From: Patescibacteria group bacterium
GTDB lineage: Bacteria; Patescibacteriota; Patescibacteriia; Magasanikbacterales; UBA922
NCBI GenBank assembly: GCA_041651535.1
Contig: JBAZIZ010000003.1
Span: forward strand, 19,357 to 83,356
Length of the DNA stretch: 64,000 nt
Direction: 5' to 3'
Shown: one piece after another, positions 3,230 to 9,487 of the stretch
How positions within the stretch are numbered: the first letter of the stretch is position 1
How the letters are laid out: the number at the start of each line of letters is the position of its first letter
Notes under the pieces: generated by a model
Told to the model about the DNA's origin: nothing
The model's input: the letters and a program-made list of their open reading frames with translations, nothing else
Databases searched by the model: none
Program-made: the position numbers and the translations under genes

Positions 3230-3961
3230 TTATTTCTCGTTTGTATACACAGCTTTTACATCATCTAAATCTTCCATTTTTTCTACAAAATTTGCTAATT
3301 TTTCACTATCTTCATCACTTAAATCTATTTTTTCTTTTGCTACCCATTCTAATCCAGAATCAATCATTTCAATATTATTTTTTTCAACAGTTTCTAACAT
3401 TTTTTGAAAATTTTCTTTTGAGCTATATAATTCTATACCTTCTTCTGTTTCTAAAATATCTTCAACTCCTCCGTCCATTAAATTTAATTGCATTTCTTCC
3501 CAATTATTTATTTTATCTTTTTCTTCTTTTACAAATCTAATAACTCCTTTTTGTTCAAATTGCCATTTTACTGAACCGGCTCCACCCATATTACCACCGT
3601 TTTTTGTAAAAATATTTTTTACTTCAGTAATCGTACGATTACTATTATCTGAAACCGTTTCCACTAAAATCGCACTACTTGCTGGCCCAAAACCTTCATA
3701 TAAAAATTCTTGAAAAACTGCTCCGTCTTTATCTTCACCTGTACCTTTTTTGATGGCTCTTTCAATATTATCTTTTGGCATGTTTACTGCTTTAGCTTTT
3801 TCAATTGCTAAACGCAAAGAAAAATTCATTGTTGGGTCGCCACCACCTTTTTGTGCAGCAACAGATATATGTCTGGCTAATTTTGTAAAAATGCTGGATT
3901 TTTTGGCGTCAGCAGCACCTTTTTTATGTTGGATATTGCTCCATTTATTATGTCCACTCAT
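3230..3961 (-). CDS. yebC: YebC/PmpR-family DNA-binding transcriptional regulator
   Basis: MSGHNKWSNIQHKKGAADAKKSSIFTKLARHISVAAQKGGGDP... is a canonical YebC N-terminus. The ORF track starts at a TTG at 4015; the first ATG (3961) aligns with the family N-terminus. Confidence 0.85.
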   Translation of the reverse strand: MSGHNKWSNIQHKKGAADAKKSSIFTKLARHISVAAQKGGGDPTMNFSLRLAIEKAKAVNMPKDNIERAIKKGTGEDKDGAVFQEFLYEGFGPASSAILVETVSDNSNRTITEVKNIFTKNGGNMGGAGSVKWQFEQKGVIRFVKEEKDKINNWEEMQLNLMDGGVEDILETEEGIELYSSKENFQKMLETVEKNNIEMIDSGLEWVAKEKIDLSDEDSEKLANFVEKMEDLDDVKAVYTNEK

Positions 3962-4112
3962 ATTTATTTTAATTAAAATAAAATAATCTTTTTTAGATTT
4001 TACCTCATTTTTCAAAAAAAATCAAGCAGACAAATTATGATTTATGATTCTAGATTTTAGAATTAAAATTTTTAGCAAATAAACTCATAAATCTAAAATC
4101 TTAATTCTAAAA

Positions 4113-6333: not shown

Positions 6334-6363
6334 TTGATAAAAATAAATAAAAAATGTTATAGT
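6334..6363 (+). promoter_or_regulatory. candidate sigma70 promoter for a TR-containing RNA (TTGATA, 18-nt spacer, TGtTATAGT)
   Basis: -35 TTGATA at 6334-6339; extended -10 TGtTATAGT at 6355-6363. Oriented toward the TR 250 nt downstream. No ORF lies between. Confidence 0.3.
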
Positions 6364-6610
6364 ATTATTGAAAGTAAGCTAATGAATTTTAGATCAAGGT
6401 TTAAAATCGCTGAAATCCTAAAACTTTAAATTACCAGATTTTAATAATCAAGGTTATTAAAAGTGTGTAGTAAAGATTTTAGATGCTACTTACTGATTTT
6501 TGGAGTAGTTTAAAAACTACAAAATAAAATACAGGAAAAATGAGTATATAAGATTTTAATCAGTAAACCTCTAATTCCAGTGCAAACAGATGAAAATCAG
6601 TAAAAAATAA

Positions 6611-6732
6611 GCTCCCGCTATGAGGATGATAGGGTGCCGAATGTCAATCTGTATGACGATGAAGTTCCTAAGTTGAACTGGAACAACTTTGACAACTCGA
6701 ATGACAAGTGGGGTTCAGCTTCTTGCCGTAGC
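6611..6732 (+). repeat. DGR template repeat (TR), 122 bp
   Basis: Aligns gap-free with the reverse complement of 8247-8368. All 19 mismatches fall on TR adenines. The TR frame contains 7 AAC/AAT codons. GC content is well above the local background. Confidence 0.9.
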
Positions 6733-6744
6733 CTCTAAAATACA

Positions 6745-6777
6745 AAAAAAACGTCCTTATGGGCGTTTCTATTTTTA
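6745..6777. terminator. hairpin aaacgtccttatgggcgttt with T-runs on both strands, immediately 3' of the TR and of the avd stop
   Basis: Inverted repeat AACGTCC/GGGCGTT, followed by tctatttttat on the plus strand and ttttttttgtatttt on the minus strand. Confidence 0.5.
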
Positions 6778-7134
6778 TCAAAGAAAACGAATCCAACCAC
6801 CTAACATCCTGCCTATTTCTTGTATTTGACTTTCCAGTTTTATATATTTATTATTATCAATTATTTTTAATTCTCTTTCCATTCTAAGTAAAACTTTCAA
6901 AGTATCAAATTTATTATTTGCTTCTATTAATTTTATCTTCTTGTCTTGTCTTTTTAAACTCATCGCTGATAAAATTAGTTCTAAAAAAGAAATAATATAT
7001 TCTTCACATTTTTTTCCAAGCATATATTGATCTTTTTTAGGAAAAGTTTTGGCATAAAAATAATATTCTTTATATAAGTCAACTGTTTTTTTAAGAATCG
7101 GAGCCTCATTTTTTATTTGATCAAAATTTTGCAT
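6778..7134 (-). CDS. avd: DGR accessory variability determinant (Avd; four-helix-bundle protein, TIGR02436-like)
   Basis: 118-aa basic helical protein that ends ...GGWIRFL, as Avd/four-helix-bundle proteins do. Sits between the TR and the RT. Confidence 0.8.
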   Translation of the reverse strand: MQNFDQIKNEAPILKKTVDLYKEYYFYAKTFPKKDQYMLGKKCEEYIISFLELILSAMSLKRQDKKIKLIEANNKFDTLKVLLRMERELKIIDNNKYIKLESQIQEIGRMLGGWIRFL

Positions 7135-8184
7135 ATGAAAATTTATAAAAATATTTTTAATGATATTATTTCAATGAACAATTTACTTTTAGCATGGGAT
7201 GAATTTAAAAAAGGTAAAAGAAATAAAATAGATGTCCAAAATTTTGAACTTTATTTAGAAGATAATTTATTTAATCTTCATAATGATTTAATAGATAAAA
7301 AATATAAACATAATAAATATACTGATTTTTATATTAATGATCCTAAAAAAAGACACATTCATAAAGCATTAGTAAAAGATAGGCTAATTCATCATGCAAT
7401 TCATCGCATAATTTATCCTATCTTTGATCCAATTTTTATTTTTGATTCTTATTCTTCTAGAAAAAATAAAGGTGTTCATAAAGCAATAAGTAGATTAAAA
7501 GTTTTTTTAAATAAAGTTAATCAAACTCATAATAAATGTTTTGTATTAAAATGTGATATAAAAAAATTTTTTTCTAGCATTGATCATAACATACTCATAA
7601 AAATAATTTCTGAAAAAATAAAAGATGAAGAATTAGTATGTTTATTAAAAGAAATTATTAATAGTTTTGAATCTGAATTTAGTATAAACAAAGATAAAAA
7701 AGGATTACCAATCGGAAATCTAACATCCCAACTTTTTGCAAATGTTTACCTAAATGAATTAGATCAATTTATTAAACAAAATTTAAAAATAAAATATTAT
7801 ATTCGTTATGCTGATGATTTTGTTATTATTCATCAGGATAAAAATTATTTAATAAATAATTTAATTAAAATAGATAATTTTATAAAAGAAAAATTAAAAA
7901 TGTCTTTACATCCAAACAAAATTTCAATCAGAAAGTGTAGTCAGGGTGTAGATTATTTAGGGTATGTAATTTTACCCAAAGCTACTGTTTTGAGAACAAA
8001 GACCAAGCGTAGAATTTTAAAAAAAATTAAATTAAGAATAAAAGAATATAAAAATAAAAAAATTGATAAATTCTTTCTTACTCAATCGATAAATTCTTAT
8101 CTTGGTGTTTTAAGTCATGCTAATAGTTACAAGTTAAAACAAAAACTAAAACAAAGTATTAAAGAAAGTTTTGATGAAAAATAA
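7135..8184 (+). CDS. DGR reverse transcriptase
   Basis: RT motifs include LPIGNLTSQLFANVYLNELD (DGR-type IGxxxSQ rather than the group II QGxxxSP) and YIRYADDFVII (YADD). The N-terminus NNLLLAWDEFKKGKR resembles the Bordetella phage bRT start. The ORF track starts at TTG 7117; the first ATG is 7135. Confidence 0.9.
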   Translation: MKIYKNIFNDIISMNNLLLAWDEFKKGKRNKIDVQNFELYLEDNLFNLHNDLIDKKYKHNKYTDFYINDPKKRHIHKALVKDRLIHHAIHRIIYPIFDPIFIFDSYSSRKNKGVHKAISRLKVFLNKVNQTHNKCFVLKCDIKKFFSSIDHNILIKIISEKIKDEELVCLLKEIINSFESEFSINKDKKGLPIGNLTSQLFANVYLNELDQFIKQNLKIKYYIRYADDFVIIHQDKNYLINNLIKIDNFIKEKLKMSLHPNKISIRKCSQGVDYLGYVILPKATVLRTKTKRRILKKIKLRIKEYKNKKIDKFFLTQSINSYLGVLSHANSYKLKQKLKQSIKESFDEK

Positions 8185-8214
8185 AAGGGACAAATCCACT
8201 GGATCCGTCCCCCC
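8175..8214 (-). terminator. hairpin GGGAC-(15 nt incl. GGATCC)-GTCCC plus T-run just 3' of the VR/target stop
   Basis: Minus-strand reading: ggggggacggatccagtggatttgtcccttttatttt. DGRs commonly carry a GC hairpin downstream of the VR. Confidence 0.5.
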
Positions 8215-8237
8215 AAAAGTTTCAAAATTCCAAAGCC

Positions 8238-8966
8238 CTAGCTCCTGCTACGGCAAGAAGCCGAACCCCACAAGCCAACCGAGAAGTCAAAGTCGAACCA
8301 GCCCAACTTAGGAACCTCATCGTCATACAGACCGACAAACGGCACCCTATCAACCTCATAGCGGGAGCCGGTGCAATCCACATAATGATCGCTGAGAACC
8401 TTTGTAAAAATACAAAGGTTTATACCCTCGTCAGAAGTAAGACATGATCTTCCTTCTTTTTTGATCAATTCTTCAGATTCTCTCGGTGATTTTCCGAGTA
8501 TCTCTTTTCCATTTTCTACGTCATAGATGACGTAAAGTCCTTTCTCAGGAACTTCAACAATATCTTTGATTTCGTTTGGACTAAGATAGGATACACCTTT
8601 CTTATCTCCATTGTGAACCAAAGACATAAGACCATTGACCCCAAGATAGGATTTGGTGGTGATAAAAAGAAAAGGGATACGGTTGTCAGGAATATCCATC
8701 TCCACTGCTTTGGAGATAACTTCCTCACGATAATCTTTGTCTGCGAAGAAATTAATTATCGTTTCAAGAAAATTAATTTCTTTCATTTTTTTGAGGTAGC
8801 TGTCATACAACTTCTCAAGTTTTTTCCTTTTTTCCTGATTTTCTGCTTTGTTTTTCTCAAACACTTCGGAATTCTCTTTAAGAAATTTTTCCTTTTCTTC
8901 AGGAGAAAGTTCATTAAAAAGTTTCTGAATTTTTTTAAATTTTGAATCAAACATTTTACTCTCCAT
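8238..8966 (-). CDS. DGR variable (target) protein with the VR at its extreme C-terminus
   Basis: 242 aa with a Lys/Glu-rich N-terminal helical region and no signal peptide. The C-terminal ...SRYEVDRVPFVGLYDDEVPKLGWFDFDFSVGLWGSASCRS is encoded by the VR. The stop codon falls 3 codons after TR homology ends. Confidence 0.85.
   Translation of the reverse strand: MESKMFDSKFKKIQKLFNELSPEEKEKFLKENSEVFEKNKAENQEKRKKLEKLYDSYLKKMKEINFLETIINFFADKDYREEVISKAVEMDIPDNRIPFLFITTKSYLGVNGLMSLVHNGDKKGVSYLSPNEIKDIVEVPEKGLYVIYDVENGKEILGKSPRESEELIKKEGRSCLTSDEGINLCIFTKVLSDHYVDCTGSRYEVDRVPFVGLYDDEVPKLGWFDFDFSVGLWGSASCRSRS
8247..8368 (-). repeat. DGR variable repeat (VR), 122 bp
   Basis: Reverse complement equals the TR except at 19 positions that are A in the TR (to T or G in the VR). 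11 codons are altered (for example N to F, G, D or V, and K to L). The 3' flank AGGAGCTAGGGC (IMH-like, GC-rich) differs from the TR flank CTCTAAAATAC. Confidence 0.9.
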
Positions 8967-9129
8967 GGTAATTATTTGTAATGTGCTGATAATTATTTAT
9001 TACTAAATAACAAATTATAATAACATATTATAAGTGTTTTGTCAACCTAATTAATCACTTTTTCGCTTATTTTAGCTAAATTTTGATTAAAAAAATAGGT
9101 GAAAATATAAGAATAAACAAAAAAACAAT

Positions 9130-9340
9130 TAGTCAATCACTTTTATCACTCTGAGAAGTATAAAATACAACGAAGAGTCCCCCAGAAAGTGGATTGTCAT
9201 TAGACAATTAAAAATCATCAATTATTGAATTAAAGAAGTTTAAGGGATACCTCTACCCCGACGTAACGTCGGGGTTACGGTATGACAAAATGACTGGAAA
9301 TTTGTTTTAAAAAAGTTTATTTATTTAGCTTATCTATTGA
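9130..9340. repeat. copy B of the ~200-bp structured intergenic repeat (copy A at 1541..1760)
   Basis: Same ordered sequence blocks as copy A. Contains the perfect hairpin ccccgacgtaacgtcgggg inside a longer stem gatacc...ggtatc. The corresponding stem in copy A is gattc...gaatc, a compensatory change. Confidence 0.5.
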
Positions 9341-9403: not shown

Positions 9404-9487
9404 AACAGCCTTATTTCAGACTATTTTTTACTTTTGCATTCCTGCCTACCGGTTTATATGCCGTTAGGTATGCAGGCAGGTTTAATT
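9404..9487 (-). terminator. tandem intrinsic-terminator module downstream of the queA stop
   Basis: aaaaacagccttatttcagactatttttt, then cttttgcatt, then cctgcctaccggtttatatgccgttaggtatgcaggcagg, then tttaatttt. Same architecture as 3157-3229. Confidence 0.5.

Follow-up and report, generated by a model that had tools for sequence, protein, structure and literature searches.

The window analyzed here is a 64 kb stretch of a Patescibacteria group bacterium genome (GCA_041651535.1, contig JBAZIZ010000003.1). It contains a genuine and complete diversity-generating retroelement (DGR) of a type widespread among ultra-small (CPR) bacteria. Its flanking genes are housekeeping genes (YebC, SpoIID-like, QueA, MltG/YceG, TyrRS and ValRS). 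The features are as follows:

6334-6363, plus strand: promoter-like site of the DGR RNA (TTGATA, 18 nt, TG-extended TATAGT; 10/12, a consensus match only)
6370-6610, plus strand: non-coding, structured leader segment that precedes the TR in the DGR RNA; proposed counterpart of Sp (profile, covariation)
6611-6732, plus strand: TR, 122 nt with 32 adenines, 7 AAY codons and 21 variable-capable codons
6749-6776, unstranded: 8-bp hairpin with a tetraloop, an A-run before and a T-run after it; terminator-like on the plus strand
6778-7134, minus strand: avd (accessory variability determinant), encoding 118 aa on the strand opposite to TR and RT (NF033474, PF22296)
7135-8184, plus strand: DGR reverse transcriptase (RT), 349 aa, with IGNLTSQLFANVY and YADD (PF00078, E 5.2e-24; bRT 8ub7)
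8184-8214, minus strand: GC-rich hairpin and T-run after the target gene, 14 pairs, 6 of them GC, 33 nt after the VR
8213-8237, minus strand: three degenerate ~8-nt repeats (CTTTGG/ATTTTGA/CTTTTGG) directly after the target stop codon
8238-8966, minus strand: target gene, a DUF5701 protein with a predicted N-terminal helical hairpin and C-terminal C-type-lectin-like domain
8247-8368, minus strand: VR, the last 40 target codons but two (alignment, repeat search)
9017-9045, minus strand: promoter-like site of the target gene (TTGACA, 17 nt, TG-extended TATTAT; 11/12, a consensus match only)

The TR/VR pair and the gene order

The TR and VR were compared by pairwise alignment and by a repeat search. 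It was found that they form an ungapped inverted pair of 122 bp (84% complementary) in which the homology breaks off abruptly at both ends, and that all 19 mismatches are at TR adenines (10 A>T and 9 A>G), the same length and count as given in an earlier note on this DNA. Given the 32 A per 122 nt of the TR, the probability of 19 random mismatches all falling at A is 4.2e-14. At the 3′ ends of the repeats the final 15 nt (GCTTCTTGCCGTAGC), a possible IMH/IMH*-type boundary, are GC-rich and identical in TR and VR, with divergence beyond. The GC contents of 47.5% (TR) and 54.9% (VR), relative to 28.2% for the window, fit the GC-rich islands of ~50% described previously. A degenerate A-to-N scan revealed no further VR in the 64 kb window.

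The TR is in the frame of the target ORF, and 30 of its 32 adenines are at codon positions 1 or 2. Its four AAC and three AAT codons read F, G, G, F, D, F and V in the VR, the four residues that had been named before. We counted 12 altered codons, not 11 as stated earlier, of which 10 are amino-acid changes and two are silent. The VR spans codons 200-240 of the 242 codons of the target and so has the C-terminal location first assigned to it, within the last 40 codons; the end of the TR-like homology is followed by R, S and the TAG stop, that is, by two sense codons rather than ending three codons before the stop. The theoretical repertoire computed for the 21 variable-capable codons of the TR is ~10^17.7 protein variants.

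The order TR (+), avd (-) and RT (+) is that of architecture B3, 'TR-(avd)-RT', of CPR/DPANN DGRs, which comprises 90% of CPR DGRs (Wu et al. 2018, PMC5758913). Among the 600 pattern matches listed in a search of genomes for RT relatives, at least 417 were confirmed, and 80 loci were retained, with RT identities of 48-64%. By title these loci are mostly Patescibacteria/CPR and a few are DPANN, which fits the enrichment of DGRs in CPR-type genomes stated in the earlier note. In every related locus with enough upstream DNA, avd is antisense between TR and RT. As a DGR it is therefore nothing unusual, a new example of a known architecture that adds a chromosomal cassette to those of CPR genomes.

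The conserved structured RNA 5′ of the TR

The 241 nt between the promoter-like site and the TR, positions 6370-6610, are a conserved structured non-coding RNA (~240 bases) that adjoins the TR and has its own -10-like box. There is no ORF of 40 aa or more in this segment on either strand. The following elements were recognized, all on the plus strand:

6377-6394/6399-6411: helix P1
6431-6448/6453-6470: helix P2
6475-6489: primer-like strand
6490-6501/6592-6603: helix P3, 12 bp, covarying, with its second arm just 5′ of the TR
6505-6508/6517-6520: helix P4
6523-6535: conserved single strand AAUAAAAUACAG
6534-6554/6559-6578: helix P5, a long interrupted stem
6728-6741: TR 3′ boundary and TR-specific tail (GUAGCCUCUAAAAU), which pairs with leader positions 6476-6489 as helix PT

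The leader is conserved across 13 DUF5701-type cassettes (alignment A3), and an iterated nhmmer profile detected it in 53 of the 80 genome RT loci, irrespective of the target; in each of them the leader adjoins the TR on its 5′ side and stops immediately before it. The RNAalifold structure of 33 leaders has 53 pairs, 48 of them with compensatory changes. The percentage of paired cells was 95.4%, relative to 69% for shuffled and at most 48% for slid alignments, the covariation was 0.785 versus 0.26, and none of 500 shuffles reached the observed values. Because G-U pairs are abundant, the leader was assigned to the plus strand. Nearly all of the 33 related leaders have a -10-like box ~13-16 nt before helix P1. 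Rfam scans yielded no Rfam 15 family matching the leader, and no such RNA family was found in the literature searched. The leader profile matched four CPR-type RT loci and none of the 41 classical phage DGR loci, in which the TR is 80-150 nt before the RT. The leader lies inside the coordinates of the earlier note, the account of which contained neither this RNA nor the reversal of avd nor the identity and fold of the target.

Helix PT, which is contiguous with P3 on one leader strand (6476-6489/6728-6741 and 6490-6501/6592-6603), was predicted by RNAalifold on alignment A3, with 94.9% paired and four pairs changed on both sides. These four are the only covarying PT pairs in the DUF5701 subgroup, and the support across families comes from duplex energies and not from column-wise covariation: the mean energy of cognate leader/tail duplexes was -18.1 kcal/mol, compared to -13.5 kcal/mol for non-cognate ones (MWU p 8e-10). 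When ~300 windows within ±1.5 kb were compared as partners of the leader strand, the TR 3′ window was the single best in 11 of 27 loci and only 29th-34th of 248-303 windows in 6 of 27.

The ~45 nt from the TR to the avd stop codon are taken up by the terminator-like hairpin with its U-run. On the minus strand the stem of this hairpin is followed by eight T (6741-6748, the A-run on the plus strand), and the corresponding helix of A3 (433-442/451-460) is 91% paired with four covarying pairs. The hairpin looks as if it terminates transcription from both sides, that of the DGR RNA and that of avd, and it may serve as an Avd-binding stem-loop as well. Handa et al. (bioRxiv 10.1101/2023.10.23.563531) report stem-loops closely following the TR for 207 DGRs out of 278.

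The leader probably positions and primes the reverse transcriptase, as suggested by the covariation and by a topological analogy to the Bordetella phage Sp RNA. A separate non-coding RNA of ~405 nt would be transcribed from the promoter at 6334-6363 to the hairpin and U-run at 6749-6776, and this DGR RNA would begin with the structured leader (241 nt), continue through the TR (122 nt) and end in a short tail. The leader would take the part of Sp, which sits downstream of the TR. Its strand 6476-6501 would pair first with the TR 3′ boundary and TR-specific tail (6728-6741) and then with the 12-nt segment that leads up to the TR (6592-6603), and this double pairing would loop out the TR and set its 3′ end beside the primer-like strand. 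The P1/P2 hairpins (UACG/CAAG-type loops), the A-rich single strand and the P5 stem would bind Avd and the RT, and RT-Avd would copy the TR with misincorporation opposite adenines. The cDNA would then replace the VR (8247-8368), changing up to 21 codons (~10^17.7 variants) and leaving the scaffold codons fixed. The limits of transcription, priming by the leader, the contacts with protein, the homing step and what the target does biologically are all inferred.

An unlikely alternative is that the leader is a real structured RNA but acts as a cis-regulatory 5′ leader or stability element that controls the amount of TR RNA or read-through into the RT, with priming from elsewhere, such as the avd-antisense sequence 3′ of the TR. 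The leader has no sequence or Rfam similarity to Bordetella Sp/RT-10, the terminator-like hairpin after the TR may leak, and a survey located candidate stem-loops/duplexes within 100 nt downstream of the TR, CPR elements included (Handa et al.). However, lineages with differing sequences each preserve specific pairing between the leader strand and the TR 3′ boundary; the PT-pairing strand runs straight into the 12-bp helix P3, which covaries and involves the bases immediately before the TR; the order of the leader elements equals that of Sp; and the little DNA between the TR and avd is itself terminator-like.

Two further elements follow the VR. The hairpin at 8184-8214 looks like a terminator and is possibly the 'downstream inverted repeat' of DGRs. 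The repeats at 8213-8237 resemble a weak copy of the YTTGR array that follows the VR in CPR-type DGRs: in 68 loci there were 3.4 YTTGR motifs per 70 nt after the VR, in comparison to 1.1 for both the region after the TR and random windows (p 4e-25), with a spacing peak of 7-9 nt. This ~8-nt tandem array is a candidate cis element that may mark the VR, and not the TR, as the recipient.

Target protein, activity and reverse transcriptase lineage

The target begins at 8966 or, more likely, at 8954, where GGAG is four to six bases upstream; the database copy is 238 aa. Residues 91-241 match Pfam DUF5701 (PF18959; 54.0 bits, cut-off 27.4), a family with 939 cluster representatives at E ≤ 0.001, and no signal peptide or membrane segment was seen in the protein. 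In a confident structural model, the C-terminal half is predicted to adopt a C-type-lectin fold that bears the VR; the model superposes on CLec/FGE-type domains, and the VR maps to its C-terminal strands. The sequence identity to Mtd, TvpA, LdtA/DUF1566 and the Bdellovibrio Bd2740 fibre tip is 6-13%, and of these proteins Foldseek supports Bd2740 only, a Ca-free C-type lectin the trimer of which matches Mtd (PMC10769870). The N-terminal 90 residues, a helical hairpin in the model, are absent from all four.

The literature searched names neither DUF5701 nor a connection of this family to DGRs. The DUF5701 DGR is one recurring cassette lineage, found in two genome loci (L005 and L165) and ~16 complete metagenome cassettes, with shorter contigs that carry the RT only in part. 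Of the 42 DUF5701 loci with enough flank, 26 have no RT nearby, so the family is independent of a DGR in cis.

The DGR lineage is active, as the differences between near-identical sister cassettes are almost confined to the VR. Loci L086 and L088 are 99.7% identical over 10.5 kb and identical in the TR, and 21 of their 30 differences are inside the VR; L095 and L099 have 17 VR differences, 16 of them at TR adenines. The copy in the window is probably active as well. It is quite improbable that the cassette is a relic, in which past VR diversification has ceased and the TR/VR differences are fossil. Related DUF5701 loci do decay: L098 and L124 retain RT fragments of only 56 and 105 aa, and L104 has kept the leader, TR and avd with an RT remnant of only 30 aa. 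In the window, however, the RT, avd and target ORFs are full length and intact, the catalytic YADD is present, the 122 bp of TR/VR have zero non-adenine mismatches and zero indels, and the leader helices, promoter box and terminator are all intact.

The product of 6778-7134 was evaluated by HMM search, and the 118-aa Avd proposed at this position was borne out by matches to the NCBIfam equivalog NF033474, 'diversity-generating retroelement protein Avd' (82.1 bits, cut-off 80), and to Pfam bAvd PF22296 (71.8 bits, cut-off 40, E 7.6e-20). The gene is on the minus strand, an orientation that had been left unstated. Its start codon adjoins that of the RT (CAT next to ATG), as in relatives. No ribosome-binding site or convincing promoter was found for RT or avd, the region having 23 promoter-like matches relative to 20 ± 4 when shuffled.

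Translation of 7135-8184 (+) gave the motifs LPIGNLTSQLFANVY and RYADDF, and the best PDB relative of the RT was Bordetella phage bRT (8ub7, E 7.8e-41, residues 3-317 aligned), with group II intron RTs at E 2.8e-25, 16 orders of magnitude behind. The earlier identification of a DGR-type RT thus agrees with the closest solved structure, and the clustering with group II intron or retron RTs that had been named as contrary to it was not observed (162 versus 300 bits; bRT best). That the protein is a group II intron, retron or defence RT and the 122-bp repeat unrelated to it has a negligible probability: the best NCBIfam model is a group II intron RT/maturase (162 bits), with weaker matches to Drt3a and a retron RT, but these scores are far under the cut-offs (300, 200 and 235 bits), the RT is by far closest to bRT, the Avd equivalog adjoins it, Rfam scans revealed no intron or retron RNA family, and 56 of the 80 loci of the closest RT relatives bear their own adenine-specific TR/VR pair. 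Membership in the group II intron (TIGR04416, 162 versus 300 bits) or retron (St85, 58 versus 235 bits) families was rejected, with no cognate RNA in the Rfam scans.

Taken together, it is very likely that this is a complete, chromosomal and probably active CPR/DPANN-type DGR (B3) that varies the ligand-binding face of a DUF5701/C-type-lectin-fold protein, the proposed leader-RNA mechanism included.

Comparison with known systems

To our knowledge, no CPR/DPANN DGR has been reconstituted to date, and the DGRs of CPR and DPANN are a large share of all DGRs. A leader that pairs with both TR ends provides a concrete RNA of ~405 nt (window positions 6370-6776) for work with the RT and Avd, and it would account for the location of avd, antisense between TR and RT. 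The leader is also a marker for annotating TRs in small genomes, even with the VR on another contig, and DUF5701, with its predicted C-type-lectin variant, is a target family newly linked to DGRs.

The cassette shares gene order, orientation and RT lineage with CPR/DPANN DGRs (B3, PMC5758913; 'DGR clade 2' of Roux et al. 2021, PMC8144416), as well as Avd and a C-terminal VR. Like CPR DGR targets as reported, its target is without a recognizable membrane or known functional domain. It differs in that the target is convergent and downstream of the RT, a layout present in 5 of the 56 TR/VR-bearing loci (four genome loci and the window); in the remaining loci, the target is upstream of the TR.

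In retrons, a structured RNA precedes the template on one transcript, and a long-range duplex brings the priming nucleotide beside the template 3′ end. The leader-TR RNA shares this layout with the msr-msd RNA, but the RT is outside the retron clade (58 versus the 235-bit cut-off) and its product is destined to take the place of a gene segment, whereas the retron product accumulates as msDNA. In contrast to retrons, DGRs require Avd.

Adenine-specific TR-to-VR transfer is common to the cassette and the Bordetella phage BPP-1 DGR (mtd-avd-TR-Sp-brt). The RT and bRT align over 315 residues, including IG(S/N)LTSQLFANVY and Y(M/A)DD; both systems have an Avd homologue, a target of C-type-lectin fold (here predicted) with a C-terminal VR, repeats that end in a GC-rich identical stretch and a hairpin downstream of the VR. 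In the cassette, however, avd is inverted and between TR and RT, the 140-nt spacer 3′ of the TR is absent and a 241-nt structured RNA is found 5′ of the TR instead, and the element is chromosomal and not phage-borne, with a target that is not a tail fibre.

Bordetella Sp is reportedly the 'RT-10' motif of Weinberg 2017/Rfam; the RT-10 covariance model had no match in the DGR RNA region even at E up to 10, and no structured spacer of the Bordetella type lies between TR and RT, the TR being only ~45 nt from the avd stop codon. The leader thus appears to be Sp-like in topology and not a member of the Sp RNA family. In the Bordetella-type RNA, the cDNA is primed from the 2′-OH of a nucleotide inside the spacer. 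In the cryo-EM structure of the Bordetella DGR spacer RNA, the Avd-binding stem-loop is followed by the primer strand and the stop-duplex strand, and after these come a short stem-loop, an A-rich unpaired strand and the long stem that binds the RT (Handa et al., bioRxiv 10.1101/2023.10.23.563531). The leader has the same order on one strand: UNCG-type stem-loop(s) come first, followed by a strand that pairs with the TR 3′ end and, next to it, one that pairs with the bases just 5′ of the TR; a short stem-loop, a single-stranded A-rich stretch and a long interrupted stem complete it. PT with P3 matches the topology of a template:primer duplex next to the 'cPRT Stop' duplex. The differences are that the leader has two apical hairpins and Sp one, and that the leader is 5′ and Sp 3′ of the TR, which is a circular permutation. 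The survey of DGR RNA elements by Handa et al. looked only 40 nt upstream of the TR.

We regard as evenly balanced the general proposal that CPR/DPANN DGRs use a circularly permuted DGR RNA, in which an autonomous ~240-nt 5′ leader has the roles of Sp and a YTTGR array marks the VR. In such an RNA the leader may contribute primer strand and stop duplex as well as the elements that bind Avd and the RT, all of which Sp contributes 3′ of the TR. If the permutation is true, the RNP architecture seen by cryo-EM in Bordetella would be conserved through an RNA rearrangement.

The retroelement and its chromosomal setting

The template repeat (TR) and variable repeat (VR) were located by our own alignment and by a repeat search, both of which gave a 122-nt ungapped match between 6611-6732 (plus strand) and the reverse complement of 8247-8368, exactly where the earlier note had placed it. 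Outside both arms the identity drops at once, and no further VR-like copies, or VRs in trans, were found within the 64 kb window. On recount, all 19 mismatches were found to fall on adenines of the plus-strand copy (10 A>T and 9 A>G), as had been claimed; with 32 adenines among the 122 TR positions, the probability of 19 out of 19 by chance is 4.2e-14. When translated in register with ORF 8238-8966 (minus strand), the TR shows the seven AAC/AAT codons reported before (four AAC and three AAT), 30 of its 32 adenines lie at codon positions 1 or 2, and 21 of its codons can vary, for a theoretical repertoire of about 10^17.7 protein variants. Two of the earlier counts needed correction: 12 codons, not 11, differ in the VR from those of the TR (2 silently, 10 with a change of amino acid), and the homology stops two sense codons, not three codons, short of the target stop. 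The final 15 nt of the TR and VR are GC-rich and identical, with divergence beyond. The G+C contents of TR and VR (47.5 and 54.9%, relative to 28.2% for the window) agree with the description of GC-rich (~50%) repeats in an AT-rich background.

The elements are in the order TR (plus), avd (minus), reverse transcriptase (RT, plus) and target (minus), with the following ORFs:

6778-7134, minus strand: avd; NCBIfam NF033474 "diversity-generating retroelement protein Avd" 82.1 bits (cut-off 80), Pfam bAvd 71.8 (cut-off 40)
7135-8184, plus strand: RT; RVT_1 reverse transcriptase
8238-8966, minus strand: target; 242 aa, more likely 238 aa from the ATG at 8954

The previous assignments of 6778-7134 to Avd, and of the RT to the diversity-generating retroelement (DGR) type with an N-terminus like that of the Bordetella phage RT (bRT), both stood. 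Avd scored above the NF033474 and bAvd cut-offs, and a sequence search of solved structures gave nothing significant for this protein. The top match to the RT among all solved structures was bRT (8ub7; E 7.8e-41, residues 3-317), in an alignment that takes in LPIGNLTSQLFANVY vs IPIGSLTSQLFANVY, and RYADDF vs RYMDDI. Group II intron RTs of solved structure rank after bRT in this search (E 2.8e-25), and the NCBIfam group II, Drt and retron models scored far below their cut-offs. Therefore, a group II intron, retron or defence RT is rejected, including the group II- or retron-like RT that the earlier note had said would count against it. The note's interpretation of the locus as a complete DGR is right, as is the observation behind it.

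The start codons of avd and the RT gene adjoin each other in head-to-head orientation (7120-7150; CAT directly followed by ATG), and the same junction was seen in 23 related loci, with a gap of 0-4 nt in most. There is a -10-like box at about -13 to -7 before each start, inside the first codons of the partner gene (TATAAA for avd), and no Shine-Dalgarno sequence. From this arrangement, the two genes may give divergent leaderless mRNAs; alternatively, the RT may be expressed by transcription reading through from the TR RNA. A promoter scan identified no RT or avd promoter, the predicted sites being no more numerous than in shuffled sequences.

Relatives of the RT were collected by scanning one genome per species; at least 417 were confirmed among the first 600 pattern matches, and 80 were kept (48-64% identity; the titles name mainly Patescibacteria/CPR and in a few cases DPANN, and some are of mislabelled MAGs). 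An adenine-specific TR/VR pair of their own was found in 55 of these 80 loci (56 with the window). In loci with such a pair the TR is invariably on the RT strand, with some 400 nt from its end to the RT, and this interval is filled by an opposite-strand Avd homologue in all loci with enough upstream DNA. The window element has the architecture B3, "TR-(avd)-RT", which accounts for 90% of CPR DGRs and occurs almost nowhere else (Wu et al. 2018, PMC5758913); the lineage has been named DGR clade 2, which is cellular and confined to the Patescibacteria (Roux et al. 2021, PMC8144416). The neighbouring genes are housekeeping genes (YebC, SpoIID/peptidoglycan-binding protein, QueA, YceG/MltG, TyrRS and ValRS), and the element is therefore chromosomal.

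Several observations were made nearby or in related loci. A viral-classified IMG/VR contig, L165 (UViG_3300035698_027858, 33.8 kb), has a 64% identical RT, the leader RNA described below and the same convergent VR layout; it could be either a CPR phage or prophage bearing the cassette or a misclassified cellular fragment. The related locus L016, whose contig also carries a B3 cassette, has at 941-1841 a second TR/VR pair (TR 1306-1442) followed by a plus-strand Avd homologue, which would be a different architecture beside the B3 element. In locus L007, a LOOT RNA (Rfam RF03000, 68.8 bits) lies at 7259-7371 (minus strand), about 1.2 kb downstream of a CPR DGR RT. In the window, the AT-rich target-queA intergenic region contains two GC-rich hairpins (9226-9285 and 9436-9482, e.g., CCCCGACGTAACGTCGGGG), without Rfam match, which may be terminators or a small repeat element.

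The target family and its diversification

The 238-aa form of the target is preferred on the basis of a GGAG upstream of the ATG and agreement in length with the database copy of the protein (P0001). Looking up the exact target sequence gave no matching contig. The target belongs to Pfam DUF5701 (54 bits, cut-off 27.4), a family of 939 representatives at 50% identity (E <= 0.001) whose name was absent from the literature searched; within that literature, DUF5701 is not previously named as a DGR target family. A sequence search of solved structures yielded nothing significant, and neither a signal peptide nor a membrane segment was seen, as is typical of CPR targets. A confident AlphaFold2 model (58 homologues, pLDDT 95.2) consists of a helical hairpin (residues 1-90) and an alpha/beta domain. 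Foldseek supported one match to this model, Bd2740 (probability 0.99), the tip of which is described as a calcium-free C-type-lectin variant and the trimer of which matches only the Bordetella phage target protein Mtd (PMC10769870). Because Bd2740 is itself described as a C-type-lectin variant, the target is predicted to be a distant variant of this type with the VR on its last strands. Roux et al. predicted the C-type-lectin type for uncharacterised CPR targets (PMC8144416).

Of the metagenomic DUF5701 loci, 42 had 2.5 kb or more of downstream sequence; 13 of these had the same convergent cassette (target, then opposite-strand RT, avd and TR), 3 had RT remnants, and 26 had no RT nearby. Therefore, DUF5701 is a CPR protein family of which one lineage was captured by a DGR. 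Three of the metagenome loci contain decaying cassettes: L104 kept the leader, TR and avd with the RT reduced to a 30-aa remnant, and L098 and L124 have RT fragments of 56 and 105 aa and no detectable TR.

Comparison of sister cassettes bears on activity. The related loci L086 and L088 are 99.7% identical over 10.5 kb and have identical TRs, and 21 of their 30 differences lie within the 125-nt VR. Between L088 and L089 the VR has a single difference, at a TR adenine, and the 97% identical pair L095 and L099 has 17 VR differences, 16 of them at TR adenines. This concentration of differences in the VR argues that the lineage of sister cassettes is diversifying in nature. The window copy has intact genes, an intact leader and zero non-adenine TR/VR mismatches. 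The VR of L086 (5496-5620) is 3 nt longer than its own TR (7397-7518; 125 vs 122 nt), due to an in-frame indel inside the VR.

A structured leader RNA and a repeat array after the VR

The interval between the SpoIID-like gene and the TR is 353 nt long, without an ORF of at least 40 aa. In a TR-flank alignment of DUF5701-type cassettes, a stretch of approximately 240 nt adjoining the TR on its 5' side matched the TR in conservation (mean column identity 74%). This leader (6370-6610, plus strand) falls inside the span 6334-8966 of the earlier note, the DGR parts of which stand, and was not part of that description. A sequence-only profile found the leader in about 30 of the 80 genome RT loci at first and in 53 of 80 after three iterations, many of the loci without a match simply having no upstream sequence. 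The leader-bearing genome loci have unrelated targets and include archaeal (DPANN) loci, and the copies share the strand of the TR and RT and always stop 0-15 nt short of the TR (e.g., 4215-4469 in L005 and 7519-7768, minus strand, in L086). Of 41 classical phage DGR loci from IMG/VR, in which the TR lies 80-150 nt ahead of the RT, none was matched by the profile; the 4 CPR-type loci all were.

A single-sequence fold of 6365-6790 was uninformative (z -1.88), so only comparative analysis revealed the structure. With 33 leaders of diverse cassettes aligned by plain MAFFT, RNAalifold predicted 53 pairs, 48 of them with compensatory double changes, and none of 500 shuffles attained the observed values. 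G-U pairs are frequent, and therefore the transcribed strand is the plus strand.

Support for the 53 leader pairs (observed; shuffled; 3' partners slid by 1-3 columns)
Cells paired: 95.4%; 69.1%; 36-48%
Covariation score: 0.785; 0.263; 0.19 or less

The features of the leader and its surroundings are:

ending at 6363, plus strand: promoter-like site matching consensus, TTGATA -35 and TG-extended -10 TGTTATAGT, just before the first conserved leader base
6377-6394 / 6399-6411, plus strand: P1, long hairpin with an apical YYAMGG motif (UACG/CAAG-type loops)
6431-6448 / 6453-6470, plus strand: P2, same type as P1
6475-6489, plus strand: PT leader strand, GAUUUUAGAUGCUAC; partner 6728-6741, GUAGCCUCUAAAAU
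6490-6501 / 6592-6603, plus strand: P3, 12-bp helix, gapless after PT, its 3' strand ending 7 nt before the TR
6505-6508 / 6517-6520, plus strand: P4, short, variable stem
6523-6535, plus strand: nearly invariant single strand, AAUAAAAUACAG
6534-6554 / 6559-6578, plus strand: P5, three-part stem
6749-6768: hairpin of 8 bp with a tetraloop, starting 16 nt after the TR
8184-8214, minus strand: GC-rich hairpin and T-run, ending at the RT stop codon
8213-8237, minus strand: three degenerate ~8-nt repeats after the target stop codon

P3 is among the best-supported helices, with double changes in 11 of 12 pairs. The PT partner comprises the last 5 nt of the TR/VR homology and 9 TR-specific nt; in the DUF5701 subgroup PT is 94.9% paired with four covarying pairs, and across families the strands have quite different sequences and keep their complementarity. 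Cognate leader/tail duplexes were more stable than non-cognate ones (means of -18.1 and -13.5 kcal/mol; Mann-Whitney p 8e-10). When about 300 windows up to 1.5 kb away on either side were ranked as partners of the leader strand, the TR 3' window came first in 11 of 27 loci and among the first three in 14 of 27.

The -10-like box is equidistant from P1 in nearly all 33 leaders. The hairpin at 6749-6768 covaries, and the eight A before it and the T-run after it, which overlaps the avd stop codon, make it look like a bidirectional terminator. In the simplest reading, leader, TR, tail and hairpin would form a separate RNA of about 405 nt. In a DUF5701 cassette, L113, a tRNA-like sequence was seen, in the alignment only, directly upstream of the leader (about 3900-3975, minus strand), and this leader is without P2.

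On the recipient side, the 70 nt that follow the VR in 68 CPR-type loci contain 3.4 TTGR/TTAG motifs on average, a threefold enrichment over both the TR flank and random windows (1.1 each; p 4e-25), with a sharp peak of spacing at 7-9 nt. The motifs form a tandem YTTGR array (CTTGA/CTTGG/CTTAG, about 8 nt) immediately after the VR and target stop (e.g., in L014, L010, L007, L119 and L138), which is weak in the window (3 units, 8213-8237). The array may be a recipient-specific cis element. Pairing of the P1/P2 loops (UCAAGG in the window) with the post-VR CCTTGA-type repeats was considered and dropped: UUACGG-loop loci such as L014 keep CTTGA repeats, and therefore loop and repeat do not covary.

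The leader, with its pairing to both TR ends, and the post-VR repeat array are general to the CPR-type DGR class and, as far as could be checked, undescribed. In scans of the window (gathering cut-off, and E <= 10) and of 16 related loci, the leader matched no Rfam 15 family; Rfam 15 includes the RT-1 to RT-19 motifs (Weinberg et al. 2017), of which RT-10 is the Bordetella spacer. The literature searched, of which coverage was incomplete so that an earlier description is possible, contained no description of the leader.

Comparison with the Bordetella phage spacer

The Bordetella phage TR requires 20 nt upstream and a 140-nt spacer RNA (Sp) downstream. In the cryo-EM work on this element (bioRxiv 10.1101/2023.10.23.563531), the first feature along Sp is a stem-loop that binds Avd and has a UNCG loop. 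Next comes the strand that pairs with the 3' end of the TR, forming the template:primer duplex with priming from Sp A56, and directly adjacent to it a strand whose partner, in the "cPRT Stop" duplex, is the sequence immediately before the TR. A short stem-loop, unpaired adenosines with a single-stranded "Thumb Ring", and a long interrupted bRT-binding stem follow in that order. The same preprint surveyed other DGRs, CPR included, within limits of 40 nt on the upstream and 100 nt on the downstream side of the TR, and because of this upstream limit the leader could not have been detected there.

The leader has the same succession as Sp: P1/P2, the PT strand, the P3 strand, P4, an A-rich single strand and P5. 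It has no sequence similarity to Sp, and, unlike Sp, the whole block precedes the TR, so that the P3 partner is contiguous with the TR. By this analogy, we infer that the leader may be a circularly permuted spacer with an Sp-like function, and such a permutation would also account for the antisense avd that occupies the TR-RT interval.
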